Positions 7,540 to 20,981 of a DNA stretch of 25,529 bases are shown in pieces. Source of the stretch: Gammaproteobacteria bacterium. Its GTDB lineage: Bacteria; Pseudomonadota; Gammaproteobacteria; BMS3Bbin11. The notes beneath the pieces are model-generated. The model did no database searches. It was not told where the DNA came from and saw only the letters and a list, made by a program, of their open reading frames with translations. The stretch is taken from assembly GCA_030597275.1 (NCBI GenBank), contig JAUVSB010000001.1:1-25529 (forward strand). Direction: 5' to 3'. Numbering within the stretch: position 1 is the first letter of the stretch; each line of letters opens with the position of its first letter. A program made the translations under genes and the position numbers.

Positions 7540-7734
7540 CTATTCCCTTTCTTCAATCCAGGCCATTTGTATGGCTTCGAGGATACGCTCACCACAATGT
7601 TCAGCCTCTTCTTCAAATCCATCGATGGCCATTACCATCTCCATCAACTGTGGAAAAGCGATGGTCAAAGGATCAATATCAGGATTGTTATCTGCCAGTT
7701 CAATGGCAATATCAAGGGTATCAGTCCATTTCAT
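7540..7734 (-). CDS. iscX: Fe-S cluster assembly protein IscX (YfhJ)
   Basis: MKWTD..IAI.L...PD.DP..ILEAIQMAWIEE motif. ATG at 7734 is preferred over the TTG at 7740 because AAGGA lies upstream. Follows fdx. Confidence 0.93.
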   Translation of the reverse strand: MKWTDTLDIAIELADNNPDIDPLTIAFPQLMEMVMAIDGFEEEAEHCGERILEAIQMAWIEERE

Positions 7735-7773: not shown

Positions 7774-8112
7774 TTAGTGAATTTCAGAAACCTGGTTAAT
7801 GGTATATTTTGGTATTTCGATGATCAAATCTTCATCTCCCACTACAGCCTGACACGAAAGTCTTGAATCAGGTTCCAGGCCCCAGGCCTTATCCAGCATA
7901 TCCTCTTCATCATCTGTCGGTTCGTTCAGTGAATCAAACCCCCGTTGAATAATGACATGACAGGTAGTGCAGGCACAGGCTTTCTCGCATGCATGTTCTA
8001 TATTAATGCCATTCTCTAAGGCTGCATTAAGAATAGTCACCCCCGGCTCAACTTCAATTTCCATTCCCTCAGGACAAACCTCATGGTGCGGCATGAATTT
8101 CAATTTTGTCAT
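7774..8112 (-). CDS. fdx: ISC system [2Fe-2S] ferredoxin
   Basis: 112 aa. Motifs HACEKACACTTCH, MLDKAWGLE, SRLSCQ. Located after hscA. Confidence 0.97.
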   Translation of the reverse strand: MTKLKFMPHHEVCPEGMEIEVEPGVTILNAALENGINIEHACEKACACTTCHVIIQRGFDSLNEPTDDEEDMLDKAWGLEPDSRLSCQAVVGDEDLIIEIPKYTINQVSEIH

Positions 8113-8115
8113 TTT

Positions 8116-9996
8116 TTACTCACTGAACTCGTTGATGTTGTGGCCTGCCATGACGCTGCGAATACTGGCATCCATGCGACGAGCAGCAAAGACTTCAGAC
8201 AGTTGATTGAGGTCAGAGATTGCCTGCTTTATAGATTCAGCATCGCCAGTATCGGCTAAAGCTTTTAATTCTTCCATGCCGGCAATTAGAGATGATCTTT
8301 CATCATTATCCAGTAATTTGTGCCCATCTTCTTCTAACGCGCTTTCAAGTGCCAGAATCGCCCGGTCGGCTTCGACTTGCTGTTCCGCCAGTTGTCGGGC
8401 GTGAACATCATCTCTAGCATGGGTGATTGAGTCTCTCAGCATTTGCTCAATTTCTGTATCCGTAAGGCCATAAGATGGCTTAACGTCAATCTGCGTCTCT
8501 ACGCCTGTTGTCGCTTCTCGGGCACTGACACTGAGCAGGCCATCTGCATCGACCTGGAAACTCACTTTGATCCGGCCATTTCCCGCCACCATAGGGGGGA
8601 TTCCATGTAATTCAAAACGAGCCAGTGAACGGCAGTCAGAAACCAGTTCTCTGTCGCCCTGAAGCACATGGATAGACATCGCTGTCTGACCATCTTTATA
8701 GGTTGTAAACTCCTGTGCACGCGTAACAGGGATGGTCGCATTTCGTGGAATAATTTTTTCTACCATGCCGCCCATGATTTCTATACCCAAAGATAAAGGA
8801 ATGACATCAAGCAGCAACATATCATCAGCTGAGCGATTGCCGATCAGAATATTCGCCTGAATCGCTGCACCGATAGCGACAACCTGGTCGGGGTCAACAC
8901 CGGTATATAGCCCTTTAGAAAAAAACTTTTCTACCTTTTGTTTCACATCAAGGACCCGCGTTGAACCGCCAACCATGACAATTCCATCGATATCCTCCTT
9001 ATCCAGGCCAGCATCGCGTAGACTACGTCGACATGGCAGTAAGGTTTTATCTATTACAGGAGCAATAAGCTCATTCATGGTAGAACGGTCAAGGACAATT
9101 TTTTTATTCGACCCATCAGGTAAACTGAGCTCTATATCTGTTGAATCATCCTCAGTCAGTGCTTCTTTGGCTGCACGCGCTGCGACCAGCGCCTGCCGTA
9201 GAAAATGGCTGTCGACGTTTAGATCATCGTTACCAATCTCGTCGAGCATCCATTCAGCAATCAACCTGTCCATATCATCGCCGCCCAGGGCAGAATCACC
9301 TGCAGTGGCAAGAACCTCAAAAATACCTTTATTGAGACGTAAGATGGAGACATCGAAAGTCCCTCCACCGAGGTCATAGATCGCATAGACACCTTCTGAG
9401 CCCTGATCCAGGCCATAGGCTACTGCTGCTGCAGTGGGTTCGTTGAGTAAGCGCATAACATTAAGCCCCGCCAGACGTGCAGCATCTTTTGTTGCCTGCC
9501 TTTGCGCATCATCAAAATATGCGGGTACTGTGATTACCACACCGCTCAGATCGCCACCCAGGGAAATTTCAGCACGTTTTTTCAGTGCGGTCAGAATCTC
9601 AGCACTAACCTCAATTGCACTACGGGGGCCGTCAGCGGTAATGATTCTGGGCACATTGGCAGACTCATCATCAAAGTTGTAGGGCATATGATCACGCAAT
9701 GATTTGATATCTGCCGTTTTACGGCCAATCATTCGTTTGGCCGATGCAATAGTATTCATTGGATCATTGACCACAGCGTTCAGCGCCAGGTAGCCTATTT
9801 GCGGGTCACCGTCAGCGCGATAACGTACAACGGAAGGCAGCAGGCTGCGCCCCTGCTCATCCAGTAGAACAACTGCTTCGCCACTTCGTACGGTTGCAAT
9901 CAGTGAATTGGTAGTACCCAGATCGATACCCACAGCCAGACGATGTTCATGTGGAACAGTAGATTTTCCCGGTTCGCTTATTTGCAGCAATGCCAT
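8116..9996 (-). CDS. hscA: Fe-S protein assembly chaperone HscA (Hsp70)
   Basis: 626 aa. Start [10 protein letters not shown], then [35 protein letters not shown] and [11 protein letters not shown]. Confidence 0.98.
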
Positions 9997-10035: not shown

Positions 10036-10596
10036 TCAGAATAAAGCTTCTTCTGCGTCGTTTATCTCAGACTGCATGCGATTAAGAAACTGTAATTCAC
10101 GCACCAGGTGACGTGCTGTGTCTAGCCCTGATTCCTGAGCCGAACCTGACTCGGCCGTATTATCCAATATCTCAGCGATACTTGCTTCTCTTTTCGAGAA
10201 CTCATTGTTGACCTTAATAGCCAGTCGACCCAGTGCATCTAGTGCTGAGTCTGCTGAAGACTGAGCGGCTTCCATCTCTTCACGCAGTTCTATTTGCTGC
10301 ATCAGAAACTCAGGATCCATACGGGTATCAAGCTCTTCATCGGTACTTATGCCCAGCAATGAAAGCATGTAACGTCCACGCTGCATGGGGTCATTCAATG
10401 TTGTAAAGGCTTCGTTAATTAGTGCTGCATACTGCGCAGAGAGGCGGCGCTCCTGCTCGCTTGCACTGGCAAAGTTATCCGGATGAAACTTTTTCTGCAG
10501 ATCTCGAAAGCGGTCCCGCAACAGCTGGCGGTCGAGCGAATAGGCATTTTCAATCCCGAAAAGATCGAAGAAATTATTTTCTAACAATGTTTGCAT
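10036..10596 (-). CDS. hscB: Fe-S protein assembly co-chaperone HscB (J-domain)
   Basis: Start reassigned to the ATG at 10596 (MQTLLENNFFDLFGI), giving 186 aa. Has the J-domain HPD motif, INEAFTTL.DP..R and DPEFLMQQIELRE. The longer 224-aa ORF overlaps iscA. Confidence 0.95.
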   Translation of the reverse strand: MQTLLENNFFDLFGIENAYSLDRQLLRDRFRDLQKKFHPDNFASASEQERRLSAQYAALINEAFTTLNDPMQRGRYMLSLLGISTDEELDTRMDPEFLMQQIELREEMEAAQSSADSALDALGRLAIKVNNEFSKREASIAEILDNTAESGSAQESGLDTARHLVRELQFLNRMQSEINDAEEALF

Positions 10597-10639
10597 GATC
10601 AGGTTAGTATTGCAGGAAGACGCAACAGAAAAAGGGGCT

Positions 10640-10963
10640 TCAGACGGTAAAGCTTTCTCCACAACCGCAGGCATCTTTGACGTTGGGATTATTGAACTCA
10701 AAGCCTTCATTCAAGCCTTCACGCTTATAATCAAGCTCAGTACCATCCAGATAGATCAGGCTTTTCTTGTCGACAATAATTTTAACTCCAGCAGACTCAA
10801 ATACTTCATCTGTATCTTCAATTTCATCTACAAACTCAAGTACATAAGCAAGACCAGAACAACCAGATGTTTTAACCGCCAGGCGGAGACCGGCAGCCCC
10901 GCCTCTTTTTTCAATAAAATTAAGGACATGCTCTGCTGCTTTTTCTGTCAGACTAATTGCCAT
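10640..10963 (-). CDS. iscA: Iron-sulfur cluster assembly protein IscA
   Basis: 107 aa. Motifs [41 protein letters not shown] lies upstream. Confidence 0.98.
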
Positions 10964-11018
10964 TATATTACTCCACTACTTCACACTGATCATGGATGCT
11001 GTATCAATCCTGACTACG

Positions 11019-12230
11019 TCAGTGTGCAACCCATTCAACTTTATCCAGATCTACACCATCCTTATACATATCCCATAAGGGTGATAGCTCACGCAACCTG
11101 CCAATATTATCACGTACCAGCTGAATCGCCCGGTCTATGTCTTGTTCCGTCGTAAAACGCCCAATACTGAAACGTATGGAACTATGGGCCAGTTCATCAT
11201 TCCTGCCCAGAGCACGGAGAACATATGAGGGCTCGAGGCTGGCAGAAGTACAGGCTGAGCCTGAGGATACGGCGAGATCTTTGAGTGCCATTATTAAAGA
11301 TTCGCCTTCAACAAAGTTAAAGCTGATGTTTATATTTCCAGGGACACGATGCTCCAGATCTCCGTTAACATAAACCTCTTCCATGTCTTTGAAACCGTTA
11401 AGTAAACGATCACGCAGAGCAAGAATTCGTTCAGATTCACTGGCCATTTCTTCATTTGCTATACGGAACGCCTCACCCATGCCAACAATCTGGTGAACCG
11501 CCAGGGTACCGGAACGCATACCACGTTCATGACCACCGCCATGCATTTGCGCTTCAATTCTGATCCTCGGCTTACGTCGTACGAAAAGCGCACCGACTCC
11601 TTTTGGCCCGTAGATCTTATGGGCTGACAATGAAAGCATATCGATATCCATTGCTTTCACATCAATTTCAACTTTTCCAGCACTCTGGGCCGCGTCTGTA
11701 TGGAATATCACCTTGTGCTTATGCGCTATGCTGGCAATTGCTGCAACATCCTGAACGACACCAATTTCATTGTTAACATGCATAATACTGATTAGCGTAG
11801 TATCAGGGCGAATAGCAGCTTCAAGCTTGGCAAGATCAATCAAGCCATCGGCTTCAGGATCAAGGTAAGTGACCTCGAAACCCTCTCGTTCAAGCTGACG
11901 ACAGGTATCCAGAACGGCTTTATGCTCGGTTTTACAGGTAATGATGTGTTTACCTTTTTTACTATAGAAATGGGCAGCACCTTTAATTGCCAGGTTATCT
12001 GACTCTGTCGCTCCAGAGGTCCAGACTATTTCTCTTGGATCAGCATTGATCAAGTCAGCGACCTGCTTGCGTGCCTCATCTACGGCAGCCTCTGATGCCC
12101 AACCATAGGCATGAGAACGAGAGGCAGGGTTACCAAACTCTCCGTCCATCGTCATATATTGCATCATTTTTTCTGCCACCCGTTTGTCTATCGGGGTAGT
12201 GGCTGAGTAATCAAGGTATATCGGTCTCAT
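11019..12230 (-). CDS. iscS: Cysteine desulfurase IscS
   Basis: Start reassigned to the ATG at 12230 ([13 protein letters not shown]), giving 403 aa. PLP lysine in [10 protein letters not shown], catalytic SSGSACTS, and HSSIRFS. Confidence 0.98.
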
Positions 12231-12285: not shown

Positions 12286-12756
12286 CTACGTTGTTATTGA
12301 CTTAATAGTTGCTGTCACTGCAACATTATTCTGTCGACTGGCGACTTCCTGCACCTTTGGCTGGTTGACCAGGTCACCCAGTGTAATCCCGTATAAAAAA
12401 TCGTGAATGCGGTCACTCAAATCCTCCCACAAATAGTGGGTCAGGCAGCGGCCATCATTATCGCAATTCTTTTCTCCACCGCAGCGAGTCGCATCAACAG
12501 TTTCATTGATCGCTGTCACTATCTCCGCAACGCGGATATTTTCTGGCTCCGTGGCCAGGCGATAGCCGCCACCGGGCCCTCGGGTACTTTTGACCAGCCC
12601 TTTGCGACGCAAACGGGCAAATAGCTGCTCCAGATAAGAAAGAGAAATGCCCTGCCTGCCTGCAATGTCAGAAAGAGTCACGGCTCCCTTGTCATAGTGA
12701 ATGGCAAGATCTAGCATGGCAGTAACGGCATATCGGCCTTTTGTCGTCAGTCTCAT
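12286..12756 (-). CDS. iscR: Fe-S cluster assembly transcriptional regulator IscR
   Basis: 156 aa. Motifs [32 protein letters not shown]. The three cluster cysteines plus His are retained ([17 protein letters not shown]). Confidence 0.97.
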
Positions 12757-12801: not shown

Positions 12802-12830
12802 ATTATCAAATACCTGACTATTTTAGTCAA
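12802..12830 (-). promoter_or_regulatory. Sigma70 promoter of the iscR operon
   Basis: The minus strand reads TTGACT (12830-12825), a 17-nt spacer, then GATAAT (12807-12802). The -35 lies inside the IscR operator, consistent with autorepression. Confidence 0.75.
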
Positions 12831-12834
12831 GTAT
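12810..12834. promoter_or_regulatory. IscR type-1 operator
   Basis: ATACCTGACTATTTTAGTCAAGTAT matches all 25 positions of the E. coli type-1 consensus ATASYYGACTRWWWYAGTCRRSTAT. It lies 54 bp upstream of the iscR start. Confidence 0.9.
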
Positions 12835-15290: not shown

Positions 15291-15827
15291 TCAGGGCAGC
15301 TGGCGACAATTAGTTACTTCAATACTTTCAAAATGTTCATTAAGCCAGCGGAAGACAAGGTGAGAGGTGTAGCGCTTGAGGTCTTTTTCCACTTCGTCAC
15401 GGTTAACAATTCTTGCTGTCAGTTCCAATCTGACTTTATTCGGCGTCAAATGCTGTATGAGTTTTTCTGTCGAACCGGGTTTGCCTGGACGGGCTTTGGG
15501 CATCGTGTACATAAGGTTTTGCATGGTATCAAATCGTAAGCTGGAGAAGATGGGGCGCAGACGCTTGCGTACTTCTTCACGTACCAGTCGCGTCGCAAGC
15601 CAGGCGAGACTATCCGCTGCATCGAGTAAATCTGCATCAACAGTGGTCCTGGTTTCCTGAAAGAATTCCATGGCTGGGAAATAGCCTAGCTTTTTATCTT
15701 TTTCATAATTTGCAATCTGCCTGGCAAGCTCTTTACCAACCACCTCAGCTGCGGCAGATGAATGACTATCCAGATCTTCAGGCTTGACTGTTATAATCAA
15801 CGATATAGCTACATTTGTGACTTTCAT
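15291..15827 (-). CDS. Hypothetical protein (178 aa), last gene of the dsrS operon
   Basis: ATG ORF starting 41 bp after the dsrS stop on the same strand. Soluble-protein composition with an LGYFPAMEFF motif. No family recognised. Confidence 0.75.
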   Translation of the reverse strand: MKVTNVAISLIITVKPEDLDSHSSAAAEVVGKELARQIANYEKDKKLGYFPAMEFFQETRTTVDADLLDAADSLAWLATRLVREEVRKRLRPIFSSLRFDTMQNLMYTMPKARPGKPGSTEKLIQHLTPNKVRLELTARIVNRDEVEKDLKRYTSHLVFRWLNEHFESIEVTNCRQLP

Positions 15828-15868
15828 GAATTTAATTTTCAGTTTTCGGACCTGGAACGTGGGGCGGT

Positions 15869-17005
15869 TTAATCTTCAAGCCGACTCACCATCTCCAGCA
15901 GCGGTTCACTGACGGGTTTTATCCGTTTACGCAAAACGGATCCCAGGCAGTCGTTACCCCCGCATATCGGGTCTAGCAGTACTTCACTGAGCTGTGCGAG
16001 TCCCAGTAGTGCATGGACACGTTCTTCACTATCAGGGATGTGGCGGAGTATCCATTCAATTTCGGTTGATAGTTGCTGACATGTTTTTTCACAATCACCA
16101 TTGCAAATGCCCGCATTGAATGATTGTAAGTCCTCGATTGTTCGAAACCGTCGAGTGAGCCCAAGATCTGCAAAGTAAAAACCTATAGCATTGAATAAAG
16201 CCACAACTACATCCTGTTGCGAAGGACGCTTTAAAGCCAGGCGTATCGTTTGCAGGAACGCCCTGCCCCTGCTGCTATGTATCCAGAGATATAACTCAGC
16301 GGCTTTATTGCCGTCACGTATTGCTGAATCAAGCTGCTGACGCAGTTCTTCATAACTACGATGTGGCTCTGCCTGGAGCGGTAGATTATCGGCGCTAGAT
16401 ATAAGAAAACCGGGATAATACGCTGATTTATGGGCCGCTTTTTTCCACAGTGACTGGCGATCTTCTTCAGATAAGATACCGGGCTGAAGCAATAAACCGA
16501 CCGTTTCAACAATACGTAAAGCCTCCGCTTCAAAGGGCAGAAATTCCATCAGGAACACCGCCAGTTCCTGCCCCAGCGCATCATCAATAACGCTCTGATG
16601 ACGCAGTAGAGTACGTGCATTTTCTTCAGTTGGAAGAGCCCACCAGGCATGCCTGGCAACCTCAACCGGCAGGTTTTCTGAGTGCGCAACAGCAACGACA
16701 GCCTCAGGTTCACCGAGTTTCAACAGGTTCTGCAAACTTTCTTTTTTTCTTGTCTGCCCCATTCTTGCCCAGCGGTGAATGTAGACAGGATAACCGATAG
16801 GCGAACCGAGGATATGGGTGGAGATCAATTCTTTTACCATGCCTATGTATTTTTCATCACGGCAATTGGAATTCAATACTATCCGCCCCTCACCCCTTTC
16901 TGTCAGTGCATCGATAAGCATTTTAGATTCATCAATACGCAGGGCATATAAATTCTGCCGGAGCAATACATTCAATCGTAGATTGTCTTCATTTGTCAGT
17001 GACAT
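15869..17005 (-). CDS. dsrS: DsrS family protein (reverse-Dsr sulfur oxidation accessory/regulatory protein)
   Basis: 378 aa. The N-terminus MSLTNEDNLRLNVLL..RIDES..NCRDEKY..LGSPIGYPVY..RWARMGQ..LL.LGEPEAVVAV..ARHAWWA resembles Allochromatium vinosum DsrS as I recall it. Not confirmed by search. Confidence 0.85.
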   Translation of the reverse strand: MSLTNEDNLRLNVLLRQNLYALRIDESKMLIDALTERGEGRIVLNSNCRDEKYIGMVKELISTHILGSPIGYPVYIHRWARMGQTRKKESLQNLLKLGEPEAVVAVAHSENLPVEVARHAWWALPTEENARTLLRHQSVIDDALGQELAVFLMEFLPFEAEALRIVETVGLLLQPGILSEEDRQSLWKKAAHKSAYYPGFLISSADNLPLQAEPHRSYEELRQQLDSAIRDGNKAAELYLWIHSSRGRAFLQTIRLALKRPSQQDVVVALFNAIGFYFADLGLTRRFRTIEDLQSFNAGICNGDCEKTCQQLSTEIEWILRHIPDSEERVHALLGLAQLSEVLLDPICGGNDCLGSVLRKRIKPVSEPLLEMVSRLED

Positions 17006-17023
17006 ATCTGATTTATAGTCGTT

Positions 17024-18301
17024 TTAATTCAACTGTACACGAGTACCAAAAGGCACTTTGTTCTTACCTTTAATCAGCCATAATACATCCGTGGCTGGCT
17101 CCTGCTGAGGGAATTCACCTTCTGCATCGGTAAAATAGACTAACAAATCAGGCTGAATATCCCGCCCTTCCAACCATTGAAAAGGAGGCAAGAAAGAAGT
17201 CCCTCCACCACCCTGCAGTTTTTCCGGCAACTCAACCTCTTCCCAGGGCTCATACACCCATGGGCAGGACTCTGCAATTTTGGCATCACAGGCAAGCAGG
17301 GTAATGCGGGCGGACAATTGTCCTTTAATAGCATTTATCTCACTCAGGAACTCGCTCACTTCAGAGCTACTGATTGAGCCGCTGGTATCAACGACTACAA
17401 CAATATTAACCTCTGTACTGCGTAAGCTGGGGTATATAGCCGGCCCGTCTCTGCGGTTAGACGGGCGCATATAACTGTAATCATTTCGTGCGGTGTAACT
17501 GAGGTAACGTGCCAGCAGCATCCTCCATGGCAAGCTTGGTTGCAGCATGTGATCGACCAGACGCGCCAGGGAGCCATCCATTTTTCCTGCCTGAATCGCC
17601 TGTTGTGCAGCTCCAGCCAGTCTTTGTTGCCATTGCACAGCAAGGTCTTCGCGCTGCTGCCCGCTCAATGGACGTGGACGCTTTGCACCTCCGGCATCGG
17701 TATCGGACTCGGCTTTAGCGCCAGTTTTTCCTTTGACATCACTGCCGCCCCCTTTATCTGTGACTTCGCCATCATCAGCAGAAAGGTCGCCATTTGCAGG
17801 CATTTCACCCGAGCCCTCGCCCTGATCGCCATCATCTTCTTCTGCATCATATATGTGCTGGTCTATCGTCTGATCAGCCATTTTTTTATCCAGATAGGGA
17901 TAAATTTCTTCAGCCGTCATTTCGGCAAAACCTTTGTCATAGAGTATGCCAAAAGGCGCCGTCAGGCCTTCGTCCAGCAGCAAAGGGTTAATGGCATAAT
18001 CACAGGCAATGTCCCAGCGCCATTTAACCCGGTTATTTCTTCGCGCAAAGTGCGCCAGGCCGCAGTGCAGGGCTTCGTGAGCCAGCATGAATTCTGTTTC
18101 CGCTAGCGAAAGACCGTCAATAAACTCAGGATTGAAGTAAAGCTTCCTGGCATCCGTCGCTGTGGTTTTGCACCATTTGCGATCAGCCGCCACAAGCGGC
18201 AGGCGTAATACCAGGGCACCAAGAAAAGGTCTGTCCAGGATAAGTCGGGTACGAGCAGTAGCGAGCTTCTGTTCTATACCCGCGAGATCCATTTCAGGCA
18301 C
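17024..18301 (-). CDS. DUF2201-type putative metallopeptidase plus C-terminal VWA domain protein
   Basis: 425 aa. The GTG start overlaps the ATPase stop (TAGTG); an alternative ATG is at 18292. Contains HEALH (HExxH, 18065-18079), WDIACDYAIN, an acidic Gly-rich linker, and MIDAS elements DTSGS, GGGGTSF and FTDAEG. Confidence 0.88.
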   Translation of the reverse strand: MPEMDLAGIEQKLATARTRLILDRPFLGALVLRLPLVAADRKWCKTTATDARKLYFNPEFIDGLSLAETEFMLAHEALHCGLAHFARRNNRVKWRWDIACDYAINPLLLDEGLTAPFGILYDKGFAEMTAEEIYPYLDKKMADQTIDQHIYDAEEDDGDQGEGSGEMPANGDLSADDGEVTDKGGGSDVKGKTGAKAESDTDAGGAKRPRPLSGQQREDLAVQWQQRLAGAAQQAIQAGKMDGSLARLVDHMLQPSLPWRMLLARYLSYTARNDYSYMRPSNRRDGPAIYPSLRSTEVNIVVVVDTSGSISSSEVSEFLSEINAIKGQLSARITLLACDAKIAESCPWVYEPWEEVELPEKLQGGGGTSFLPPFQWLEGRDIQPDLLVYFTDAEGEFPQQEPATDVLWLIKGKNKVPFGTRVQLN

Positions 18302-19347
18302 TAGCGACTAAAGATCATCAGGTCAGCAATTGAATCCGCCCACTGATCAAACTCAGGAACTGAGAACATTTCCTCTCCCAGGGCACGATTCATATCAGAG
18401 ACCATCATTACCCCCATTTCACGCTGCGGGAAGCTACCGGCAAAGCTCAAAATATTGCCGATTACACTGGCTGCATTATCACTTCCCTGTTCCCGTATCG
18501 CCCTGCCCACCAGTGCTGTGGCCACGGCATATTGTAGGTCTACTTCAGCGGGTACCGGCACATCTTTACCAGCAATGATTTCATCCAGGTCTGGCATATT
18601 TGTCAGGTTCTCAATATAGGCCTTTAATTCAATTCCAGTAGCCGGACCAACACAGGCCTGCAGGGTTTCCGTAAGCAATTCAGGCTGATCTTCAAATTTC
18701 TGTATTGCATTGTTAGCAAATTCCCACGAGCGAGGGGTAGGGAATGCCACAGGGTTGTGCGCCGGGTCAAATTCAAACAGTTTTTCAGGACGAAAGCGTA
18801 GAAAGGCTATCAAGCGGTCGTCTATGCCATGAGAATACGCCCAGCTGACCCAGTCATCGAGGTTAATATCAACATCATAATGTGAGAAACGATTGGCTAA
18901 TGGCGACGGCATGGTATAGGTTACACCACGATCCCCCTGACGATTACCTGCAGCAAATATCGCCCAGCCGGGAGGTACCCTGTATTCTCCCAGGCTGCGG
19001 TCCAGAATTAACTGATAAGCGGCAGCCGAGACGCTGGGTGGCGCTGAGGTAATTTCATCCAGGAACAGGATTCCCGTATCGCCGTGACGTTCGATATTCG
19101 GCAACATTGATGGAATGGCCCATTCGACGTAATCATTCACCCGCATGGGAATGCCGCGTAAATCACTCGGTTCCATTTGTGAAAGGCGAACATCAATCAC
19201 CGCGACATCGTGTGAACTGGCTATCTGCTGCACAATCTGGGACTTGCCGACACCGGGAGCGCCCCAGAGCATAACAGGCGTATGCAGCCCCTCACTGGCA
19301 CTGAGGAACTCACGTTCCAGGACTTTTATCAGGTGAGCTGGACGCAT
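18301..19347 (-). CDS. MoxR-type AAA+ ATPase
   Basis: Start reassigned to the ATG at 19347 (MRPAHL), which overlaps the Sel1 stop as TAATG; 348 aa. Walker A GAPGVGKS, Walker B ILFLDE, plus AAGNR, LANRF and PTPRSWE. Confidence 0.92.
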   Translation of the reverse strand: MRPAHLIKVLEREFLSASEGLHTPVMLWGAPGVGKSQIVQQIASSHDVAVIDVRLSQMEPSDLRGIPMRVNDYVEWAIPSMLPNIERHGDTGILFLDEITSAPPSVSAAAYQLILDRSLGEYRVPPGWAIFAAGNRQGDRGVTYTMPSPLANRFSHYDVDINLDDWVSWAYSHGIDDRLIAFLRFRPEKLFEFDPAHNPVAFPTPRSWEFANNAIQKFEDQPELLTETLQACVGPATGIELKAYIENLTNMPDLDEIIAGKDVPVPAEVDLQYAVATALVGRAIREQGSDNAASVIGNILSFAGSFPQREMGVMMVSDMNRALGEEMFSVPEFDQWADSIADLMIFSR

Positions 19348-19772
19348 TAAAACCCCGCCTTCGCATACCATTCTTTGGCCAGTTCAGGATCTTTCTCAAC
19401 GCCATTGCCTTCTTCATACATCATAGCCAGTGTAGTTTGTGAACCGGCGAGACCCTGCTCTGCCGCCAGGGTAAACCATTTAACCGCCTGTTCCATGTCT
19501 TTGTCGACACCATCGCCTTCCATATACATGAATCCCATGCCGTGCTGCGCGATAGCATGGCCATCTTCTGCGGCTTTAAGCATCCATTTAACCGCTGACT
19601 CCGGATCACGCCCTACACCCAGACCATTTTGATACATAATGGCCACTCTATGCATTGCTTCATTATTCCCTTTCTCAGCTAAAGGCGACAGAAATCGCAT
19701 TGCTGTTGAAAAATGTTTGGCTTCGAAAGCCGACATGCCACTGGTGAAATCCATGTCATCATGCTCGCTCAT
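19347..19772 (-). CDS. Sel1-like repeat protein (three repeats, no signal peptide)
   Basis: Start at ATG 19772 (MSEHDD) with a GGAG RBS upstream; 141 aa. Three repeats of the type A...(L/M)..MY..G.GV..D...A..W...AA..G. Confidence 0.9.
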   Translation of the reverse strand: MSEHDDMDFTSGMSAFEAKHFSTAMRFLSPLAEKGNNEAMHRVAIMYQNGLGVGRDPESAVKWMLKAAEDGHAIAQHGMGFMYMEGDGVDKDMEQAVKWFTLAAEQGLAGSQTTLAMMYEEGNGVEKDPELAKEWYAKAGF

Positions 19773-20073
19773 AAATCTACTCCACACTAATCCAGTTAAT
19801 CAAAAGCTTAATAATACCAGATTGTGCTAGTAGGATATGCCCAAAAGACGTATGGCCACTATGGCTAAAGTTAAAAATTAAGCTAAAAAATACAGTAAAT
19901 TTATTGATTAATTCAACACGCTTATTTCACCTTTACGGAGAAACATGAACTGGACAAAACTACTAAACTGGGCCAAAATGAGGGATTAATTATTTACCGA
20001 ATCTTGAGATGCCTTTATATAGTCATCTCAGCATTGTTTGACAAAGTATTTAAAGACATTTAGGGGACTTTAC

Positions 20074-20268
20074 ATGAACAAAGAATATTATGATGCAGTA
20101 GTCAAGATGGAAGAAATGGGTGTTGACAATGAATACATCCAGGGCTGGCAAGGCGGCTATTTGTGCAACGTCAAACGTGAAGAACAGCGTCTAACTGAAG
20201 CCTATGAAGCAGGTTATGACGATGGCCTCGAAAAAACTCAGGACAACTTTGGCAACTGGACGAATTAA
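20074..20268 (+). CDS. Alvin_2107-like sulfur globule oxidation protein
   Basis: 64 aa from the ATG at 20074, with GGGGA upstream. The pattern MNKEYYDAVVKMEEMGVDNEYIQGWQGGY..KREEQR.TEAYEAGY.DG is recognised from memory as the Alvin_2107 family. Confidence 0.8.
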   Translation: MNKEYYDAVVKMEEMGVDNEYIQGWQGGYLCNVKREEQRLTEAYEAGYDDGLEKTQDNFGNWTN

Positions 20269-20300
20269 TCTCGATTCAGCAAAACTGGGCATCAAAGAAA

Positions 20301-20333
20301 AATAAAAGGGCGCGCATTGCGCGCCCTTTTATT
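20301..20333. terminator. Bidirectional intrinsic terminator
   Basis: AATAAAAGGGCGCGC-ATT-GCGCGCCCTTTTATT is a perfect 15-bp inverted repeat with T-tracts usable on both strands, located between convergent genes. Confidence 0.9.
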
Positions 20334-20402
20334 GTCTGCGCTCTCCGCCACCGTCATCTCTAGTCTTCGATAACAAAAACTGAAATATGCCCCCTGAGCT
20401 TT

Positions 20403-20981
20403 TCAGGTTTTGTCTTTTTCCTCATCCTCATCATCCGGCAACAAATTAGCAATACCGCGCTTTAATGTCTTGATAGCATCCGGGGCCTCAATATCAATGA
20501 TTTGTGTGGTGATCCATTTCTTCTGTCGTTCACCCATCACGGCCGTAACACATTCACCGAAGTAGCGTAGCATCGGGAAGGATGGGCCACTTTCATCGCT
20601 ATAGCCAAACTTGGAGTATTCGTTCATACGTATATTTAGTGTATTGATCAGATCTGGCTTGTAAAAGCCGTTGCCGAGGAAATCTTCCATGTTGTCCTGC
20701 ATGGTTTGCGCCATTGCTTTTGCCATGGCAGAGATAAACACAGCTCGTTCCTCTTCATCCATACGGTCGTACATCATGCGGTCGGTGACATGTATCAAAA
20801 AAGCAGCAAATTCCCAGATAATTGCCAGCCGCTGCACCTGGGTGTCAGTTTGAAAATTGTTATTTTCCAGCTCAAGTACAGCCTGGGTACATATACGCCA
20901 GGCAATAAAACCTACGACGCCCGCTATCTCTTCAGGTGTACGATCACGATTTTTTGCGCTCCACTTGCTACGAATTCTCAA
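20403..20981 (-). CDS. Hypothetical protein (192 aa)
   Basis: TTG start with GAGAG upstream. Helical globular composition (MRIRSKW, PEEIAGVVGFIAWRI, IDIEAPDA) and an acidic tail. No function recognised. Confidence 0.8.
   Translation of the reverse strand: MRIRSKWSAKNRDRTPEEIAGVVGFIAWRICTQAVLELENNNFQTDTQVQRLAIIWEFAAFLIHVTDRMMYDRMDEEERAVFISAMAKAMAQTMQDNMEDFLGNGFYKPDLINTLNIRMNEYSKFGYSDESGPSFPMLRYFGECVTAVMGERQKKWITTQIIDIEAPDAIKTLKRGIANLLPDDEDEEKDKT

Follow-up and report, generated by a model that had tools for sequence, protein, structure and literature searches.

In E. coli and Pseudomonas, the genes of the ISC system for Fe–S cluster assembly are arranged as iscRSUA-hscBA-fdx-iscX, with iscU between iscS and iscA. 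The scaffold protein IscU is the client of the co-chaperone HscB and the chaperone HscA (PMC8593673). In E. coli, the Rrf2-type regulator IscR in its holo form represses Type-1 sites, whereas cluster-free IscR binds only Type-2 sites (PMC8593673, PMC12594620). The IscR of Rhodobacter sphaeroides is an example of an Rrf2 regulator whose cluster ligands are missing or altered (PMC4618611). The genome described here resembles the E. coli/Pseudomonas system in that it encodes all eight genes, an IscR with four ligands, a predicted Type-1 box over the –35 element, an IscU with the LPPVK motif, and HscA and HscB with their binding motifs. In contrast to that system, iscU resides at a second locus, which has a predicted IscR box, an internal promoter and a terminator of its own, and neither a SUF back-up nor NfuA was found in the congeners searched.

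Layout of the isc genes

The stretch of DNA analyzed (25,529 nucleotides, hereafter the window) represents one whole contig of a 1.15-Mb bin that is 60% complete (genome G000). Its minus strand carries, in this order, cysG, cysE, iscR, iscS, iscA, hscB, hscA, fdx, iscX, mtaB and rlmN. All seven isc genes are full-length, in agreement with the earlier note, which had called them intact: iscR (12286..12756), with the cluster ligands C92, C98, C104 and H107; the cysteine desulfurase gene iscS (11019..12230, 403 aa; TIGR02006, 739 bits against a cut-off of 643); iscA (10640..10963; TIGR02011, 169 bits); the co-chaperone gene hscB (10036..10596); the chaperone gene hscA (8116..9996); the ISC ferredoxin gene fdx (7774..8112; TIGR02007); and iscX (7540..7734; TIGR03412). 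The latter six passed their NCBIfam cut-offs, and iscR, canonical by its Cys positions, scored just below (TIGR02010, 206.2 against 207.55 bits). At the usual place of iscU, only 55 bp (10964..11018) separate iscS from iscA, just as the note had described, and a tblastn search with the genome's own IscU bore out that this gap holds no iscU remnant, with matches solely on contigs C61 and C26. A plus-strand ORF across the junction (10595–11155, 186 aa) was discarded as a shadow ORF without likeness to IscU. Comparison of synteny in the closest genomes revealed the same iscU-less junction in nine congeners, with gaps of 43–60 bp, and in the sister genus, where the gap measures 15 bp; the contig of a tenth congener stops at iscA. 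Apart from the conserved ribosome-binding site of iscA, the gap sequences diverge among congeners. Since the junction is common to independent assemblies with different gap sequences, we consider it old and real.

A search of the genome for NifU_N domains returned two matches, a SufU on C26 (see below) and a canonical IscU on C61. The latter gene (C61:9837-10235; TIGR01999, 222.7 bits against a cut-off of 192.4) encodes a protein that carries C37, C63, C106 and the LPPVK motif and aligns end to end with IscU structures of E. coli and of the H. influenzae type. It lies downstream of a gene for an Rrf2 protein of 162 aa (C61:9264-9752), about 40% identical to IscR, which we named IscR2. In all ten congeners iscU is single-copy and follows IscR2, with truD next wherever the contig extends, and a dN/dS of 0.02 across the genus indicates strong purifying selection. 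A sister-genus bin (81% complete) gave no match to iscU. Given a normal iscU elsewhere in the genome, the outcome that the earlier note itself had named as refuting, the pathway is rearranged rather than scaffold-free; of the two options raised there, relocation holds and use of another scaffold is not supported. Because the operon and the C61 iscU lie on separate contigs of a 60% complete bin, the link between the two loci rests on the congeners.

The observation behind the note was real, and we are confident that the ISC pathway is ordinary and complete, with a layout rearranged over two loci that are probably still co-regulated by IscR. Locus 1, in the window, comprises iscR-iscS-iscA-hscB-hscA-fdx-iscX; locus 2, on C61, consists of a predicted promoter and IscR box, the cluster-less IscR2, a predicted internal extended –10 promoter, iscU and a terminator, followed by truD. 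IscU from locus 2 would be the scaffold that serves IscS, Fdx and HscB/HscA. We infer this role, together with the IscU–IscS and IscU–HscA/B contacts and cluster assembly from the split loci, from the intact motifs on both sides and from the fact that no other scaffold was found.

The congeners, labelled Arenicellales or Gammaproteobacteria, are MAGs from marine sediment, and dsrA was present in both of the two that were tested. Since dsrA in Gammaproteobacteria points to sulfur oxidation, this points to a marine sulfur-oxidising bacterium as the source organism.

Distribution and origin of the split layout

We surveyed 200 gammaproteobacterial genomes by comparing the positions of iscU and fdx and then inspecting the loci. 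IscU was present in 75 genomes outside the genus, and in nine of these iscU had been relocated from the isc operon; related genomes being non-independent, the counts are descriptive only. A split operon with a Cys-less paralogue before iscU was seen in six other families, including the cultured strain Thiogranum longum, whose genome is closed. In two genomes (G020 and G200) iscU stands alone, still accompanied by IscR-like boxes; in another, iscR2-iscS-iscU lies away from the chaperone genes. G132 and G168, one of which is Ectothiorhodosinus mongolicus, combine a complete operon with an intact duplicate iscR2-iscS-iscU, and a further genome has, besides its full operon, a second iscU next to a paralogue that is partly degenerate. 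Of 39 genomes with a canonical operon that were checked, about half carry an orphan paralogue, with or without the cysteines. Apparent splits in G148, G105, G206, G040, G192 and G118 were due to contig breaks or to other genes moving and were left uncounted. The unpublished genome G050 is the basis of no claim, and a search for related loci with the genus alignment returned only congeners.

Gene neighbourhoods connect these states. The intact duplicates of G132 and G168, the Cys-less iscU unit of G167 and many orphans all have a DUF1249 gene upstream. In T. longum and G187, IscR2-iscU is followed by a RibD-like gene; in G112, where iscU stayed near the operon, such a gene comes directly after IscR2. 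The shared neighbours thus tie the intact-duplicate, orphan and Cys-less states together. In the regulator tree, the IscR2 proteins form a moderately supported clade (SH-aLRT 82–91) that is separate from the operon IscRs. The IscU tree was unresolved. The split state is scattered over the HscA tree, requiring about five changes, at least two of which are forced by strong branches.

As judged from these sequences, an old duplication with reciprocal loss fits best: iscR-iscS-iscU would have been duplicated, after which the main operon would have lost iscU, and the duplicate copy iscS and the cluster ligands of its regulator. Intact iscR2-iscS-iscU duplicates elsewhere suggest just such operon duplication and reciprocal loss. 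It is also possible that translocation occurred repeatedly, with iscU recruited time and again beside an orphan IscR2. This possibility gains from the second iscU copies (L074, L076 and L077 compared with L102–L104; genomes G168, G132 and G166), which are identical or nearly so to the operon copy of the same genome. Near-identical iscU copies next to divergent regulators suggest gene conversion or recent recopying.

Some isc genes in other genomes were unusual in themselves. The in-operon IscU of G033, a genome of another family (L052:1498-2919, plus strand; 473 aa), is split by an intein-like insert that starts with Cys, ends with His-Asn and shows weak HINT-domain matches (E 5e-5, below the cut-off). 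The insert directly precedes the cluster ligand Cys63, so that the scaffold site would form only after splicing. A literature search found no IscU intein, and this case is possibly more novel than the relocated iscU. In several genomes (L083, L087, L088, L105, L108 and L109), a gene between iscR and iscS encodes an additional, divergent desulfurase with about 40% identity to IscS. The isc clusters L094 (G218) and L078 (G078) encode an IscU that lacks LPPVK, with no hscA seen in the stretch examined.

Predicted regulation and the cluster-less paralogue IscR2

A scan of the minus strand placed the isc promoter upstream of iscR (–35 at 12830-12825, –10 ending at 12802), and a predicted Type-1 IscR operator (12810..12834) extends over its –35 element with 0 mismatches to the consensus (0.01 expected by chance). 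A predicted Type-1-like box (C61:9211-9235; none expected in 200 shuffles) precedes IscR2-iscU, with a sigma-70 promoter (11/12 matches) directly upstream of the box. When a position weight matrix (PWM) trained on 29 iscR upstream regions, all from outside the genus, was used to rank 1.15 million genome positions, the two top-ranking sites were, in this order, the window box (33.4 bits) and the C61 box (30.2 bits). The corresponding boxes in 11 of 11 genus genomes reached at least 21 bits, against a 99th percentile of 8.3 in the background; the box of T. longum scored 26.6, and those of the stand-alone iscU genes in G020 and G200 scored 16–19. By the same matrix, no IscR box was detectable before the Cys-less IscR2-iscU unit of G167. 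An extended –10 element between IscR2 and iscU was present in all 11 genus genomes, a pattern not found in other families, and a terminator lies 3′ of iscU in G000. Further IscR-like sites of 19–22 bits in G000 (C2:12542, C83:4574, C13:3715, C21:5329, C42:4249 and C5:5108) precede, among others, mrp/apbC, a TusE/DsrC-like gene and a rhodanese gene, the names resting on sequence inspection only. They delineate a candidate IscR regulon that may extend to sulfur-transfer genes; a high-scoring site before mrp/apbC, which encodes an Fe–S carrier, supports the matrix.

The paralogue itself has C92, C98, C104 and H107 all replaced, and its sole cysteine is C129. Most residues of the recognition helix and wing are kept (S38, S40, Y41, E43, Q44, R50 and R59), and R8/Y9 are changed to Q/I in the genus. 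IscR2 falls below the TIGR02010 cut-off (117 against 207.55 bits) and passes the Rrf2 superfamily model (103.5 against 73.3). Its dN/dS of about 0.06, in the winged helix as well as in the segment that replaces the cysteines, demonstrates that it is under purifying selection and not decaying. The best structure matches were the E. coli IscR variants C92A/C98A/C104A (PDB 4HF0 and 4HF1; E 1e-24), with which IscR2 shares the winged helix, E43 and the absence of cluster ligands. It departs from these variants in that the loss is natural, fixed and selected, that H107 is gone as well, and that it coexists with a normal IscR. Like CymR and the IscR of R. sphaeroides, it has an Rrf2 fold without the C92/C98/C104 set, but it scores higher with IscR models than with that of CymR (117 against 71 bits), and it is a paralogue beside a canonical IscR rather than the sole regulator of the operon. 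IscR2 probably functions like apo-IscR.

With Type-1 boxes at both loci, an E. coli-type feedback loop would survive the split: holo-IscR from the window would repress both promoters through these boxes, and the window IscR probably still governs the detached iscU. The internal promoter would provide a basal, IscR-independent supply of iscU. An unlikely alternative is that iscU has left IscR control, the C61 box serving autoregulation of IscR2 and iscU being either constitutive through its own extended –10 element or controlled by IscR2 in response to a signal other than a cluster. The largely preserved recognition helix and wing of IscR2, under purifying selection, are in line with this idea, as are the divergence of the left half of the genus box from the operon box and the conservation of the internal promoter throughout the genus. 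However, the score of the C61 box is like that of genuine operon boxes, comparable boxes lie ahead of iscU in G020 and G200, two genomes in which no IscR2 was found, and cluster-free E. coli IscR binds Type-2 instead of Type-1 sites (PMC8593673, PMC12594620). More tentatively, and with some doubt on our side, IscR2 might be a natural, permanently apo IscR whose level depends on how strongly holo-IscR represses the IscR2-iscU promoter and which provides a second output upon Fe–S shortage, through Type-2-like targets or IscR-titrating heterodimers.

Scaffold, chaperones and consequences

As an alternative to relocation, the earlier note had suggested another scaffold (SUF, NifU/NfuA-type or an unrecognised protein), which HscA/HscB would then have to serve. 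What might speak for such a replacement is contig C26 of the G000 bin (L004:1-6552), which carries sufS-sufU-sufT along with a second ndk-rlmN-pilW-rodZ block. Its RlmN shares only 61–62% identity with that of the genus, and the four congeners examined for rlmN have one copy each, so that C26 is probably a contaminant; tetranucleotide distance, an uninformative measure here, did not flag it as foreign. We rejected its SUF genes as a replacement scaffold for this reason. Searches yielded no sufB in G000 or in four congeners of 95–99% completeness, with positive controls detected, no SufU above the cut-off in five congeners, and no NfuA/NifU-C domain (PF01106) in G000, G001 and G003. With one IscU and no sufB, SufU or Nfu in the genomes searched, ISC is the only assembly system found, and with a canonical, strongly selected iscU in every congener, a replacement scaffold is highly improbable.

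The note had also considered, speculatively, contributions from an upstream MoxR/VWA module or hypothetical proteins. No link between these genes and ISC emerged, and a pathway that has IscU does not require them; they were also unseen in the short isc flanks of other families, a weak test. The cluster (15291-20981, minus strand) encodes a Sel1 protein, an AAA_5 ATPase, a DUF2201 (metallopeptidase-VWA) protein and two hypotheticals, and Pfam searches of the module and hypotheticals matched only DUF2201, AAA_5, Sel1 and DUF6866. The 378-aa hypothetical at 15869-17005, without a Pfam match, presumably resembles DsrS. Both hypotheticals and cysG are syntenic in congener G003. An 866-aa ORF running from the contig end (22821-25421, minus strand), likewise without a Pfam match, is what we take to be a PPi-type PEP carboxykinase-like protein.

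That the IscU-specific chaperones are retained, as the note had stated, was substantiated at the level of their binding residues. The substrate-binding domain of HscA aligned to that of E. coli HscA (PDB 1U00; E 9e-80), with M401 and M433 kept and F426 replaced by Tyr, a residue that also occurs here in canonical-operon genomes; all three positions are ones we take to serve IscU-substrate binding. HscB retains HPD and the IscU-binding helix FLMQQIELRE, and its core is under purifying selection (dN/dS about 0.08). The IscU-binding motifs of both proteins match those of canonical-operon genomes, as would be expected if IscU is still their client. Loss of iscU from the junction through an assembly artefact, conceivable in a fragmented, 60% complete bin, can practically be dismissed, as ten further independent assemblies from the family share the junction with different gap sequences and the closed T. 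longum genome has it too.

The apparent paradox has thus disappeared, as the client of HscA/HscB is still encoded in the genome. When genomes of marine Gammaproteobacteria are annotated, the absence of iscU from the isc operon is usually a sign of relocation, not of a new scaffold. A literature search, which covered few subscription papers, returned no relevant paper on a split isc operon or an IscR paralogue, and we regard the cluster-less paralogue as the modestly new part of the finding. It is the regulatory side that merits follow-up: a scaffold gene keeps its predicted IscR box outside the operon and is accompanied by a widespread, selected, cluster-less paralogue. If IscR2 indeed acts as a permanently apo IscR, scaffold supply would be tunable separately from IscS, and the two roles, holo and apo, that IscR combines in E. 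coli would be divided between two proteins across many non-enteric Gammaproteobacteria.
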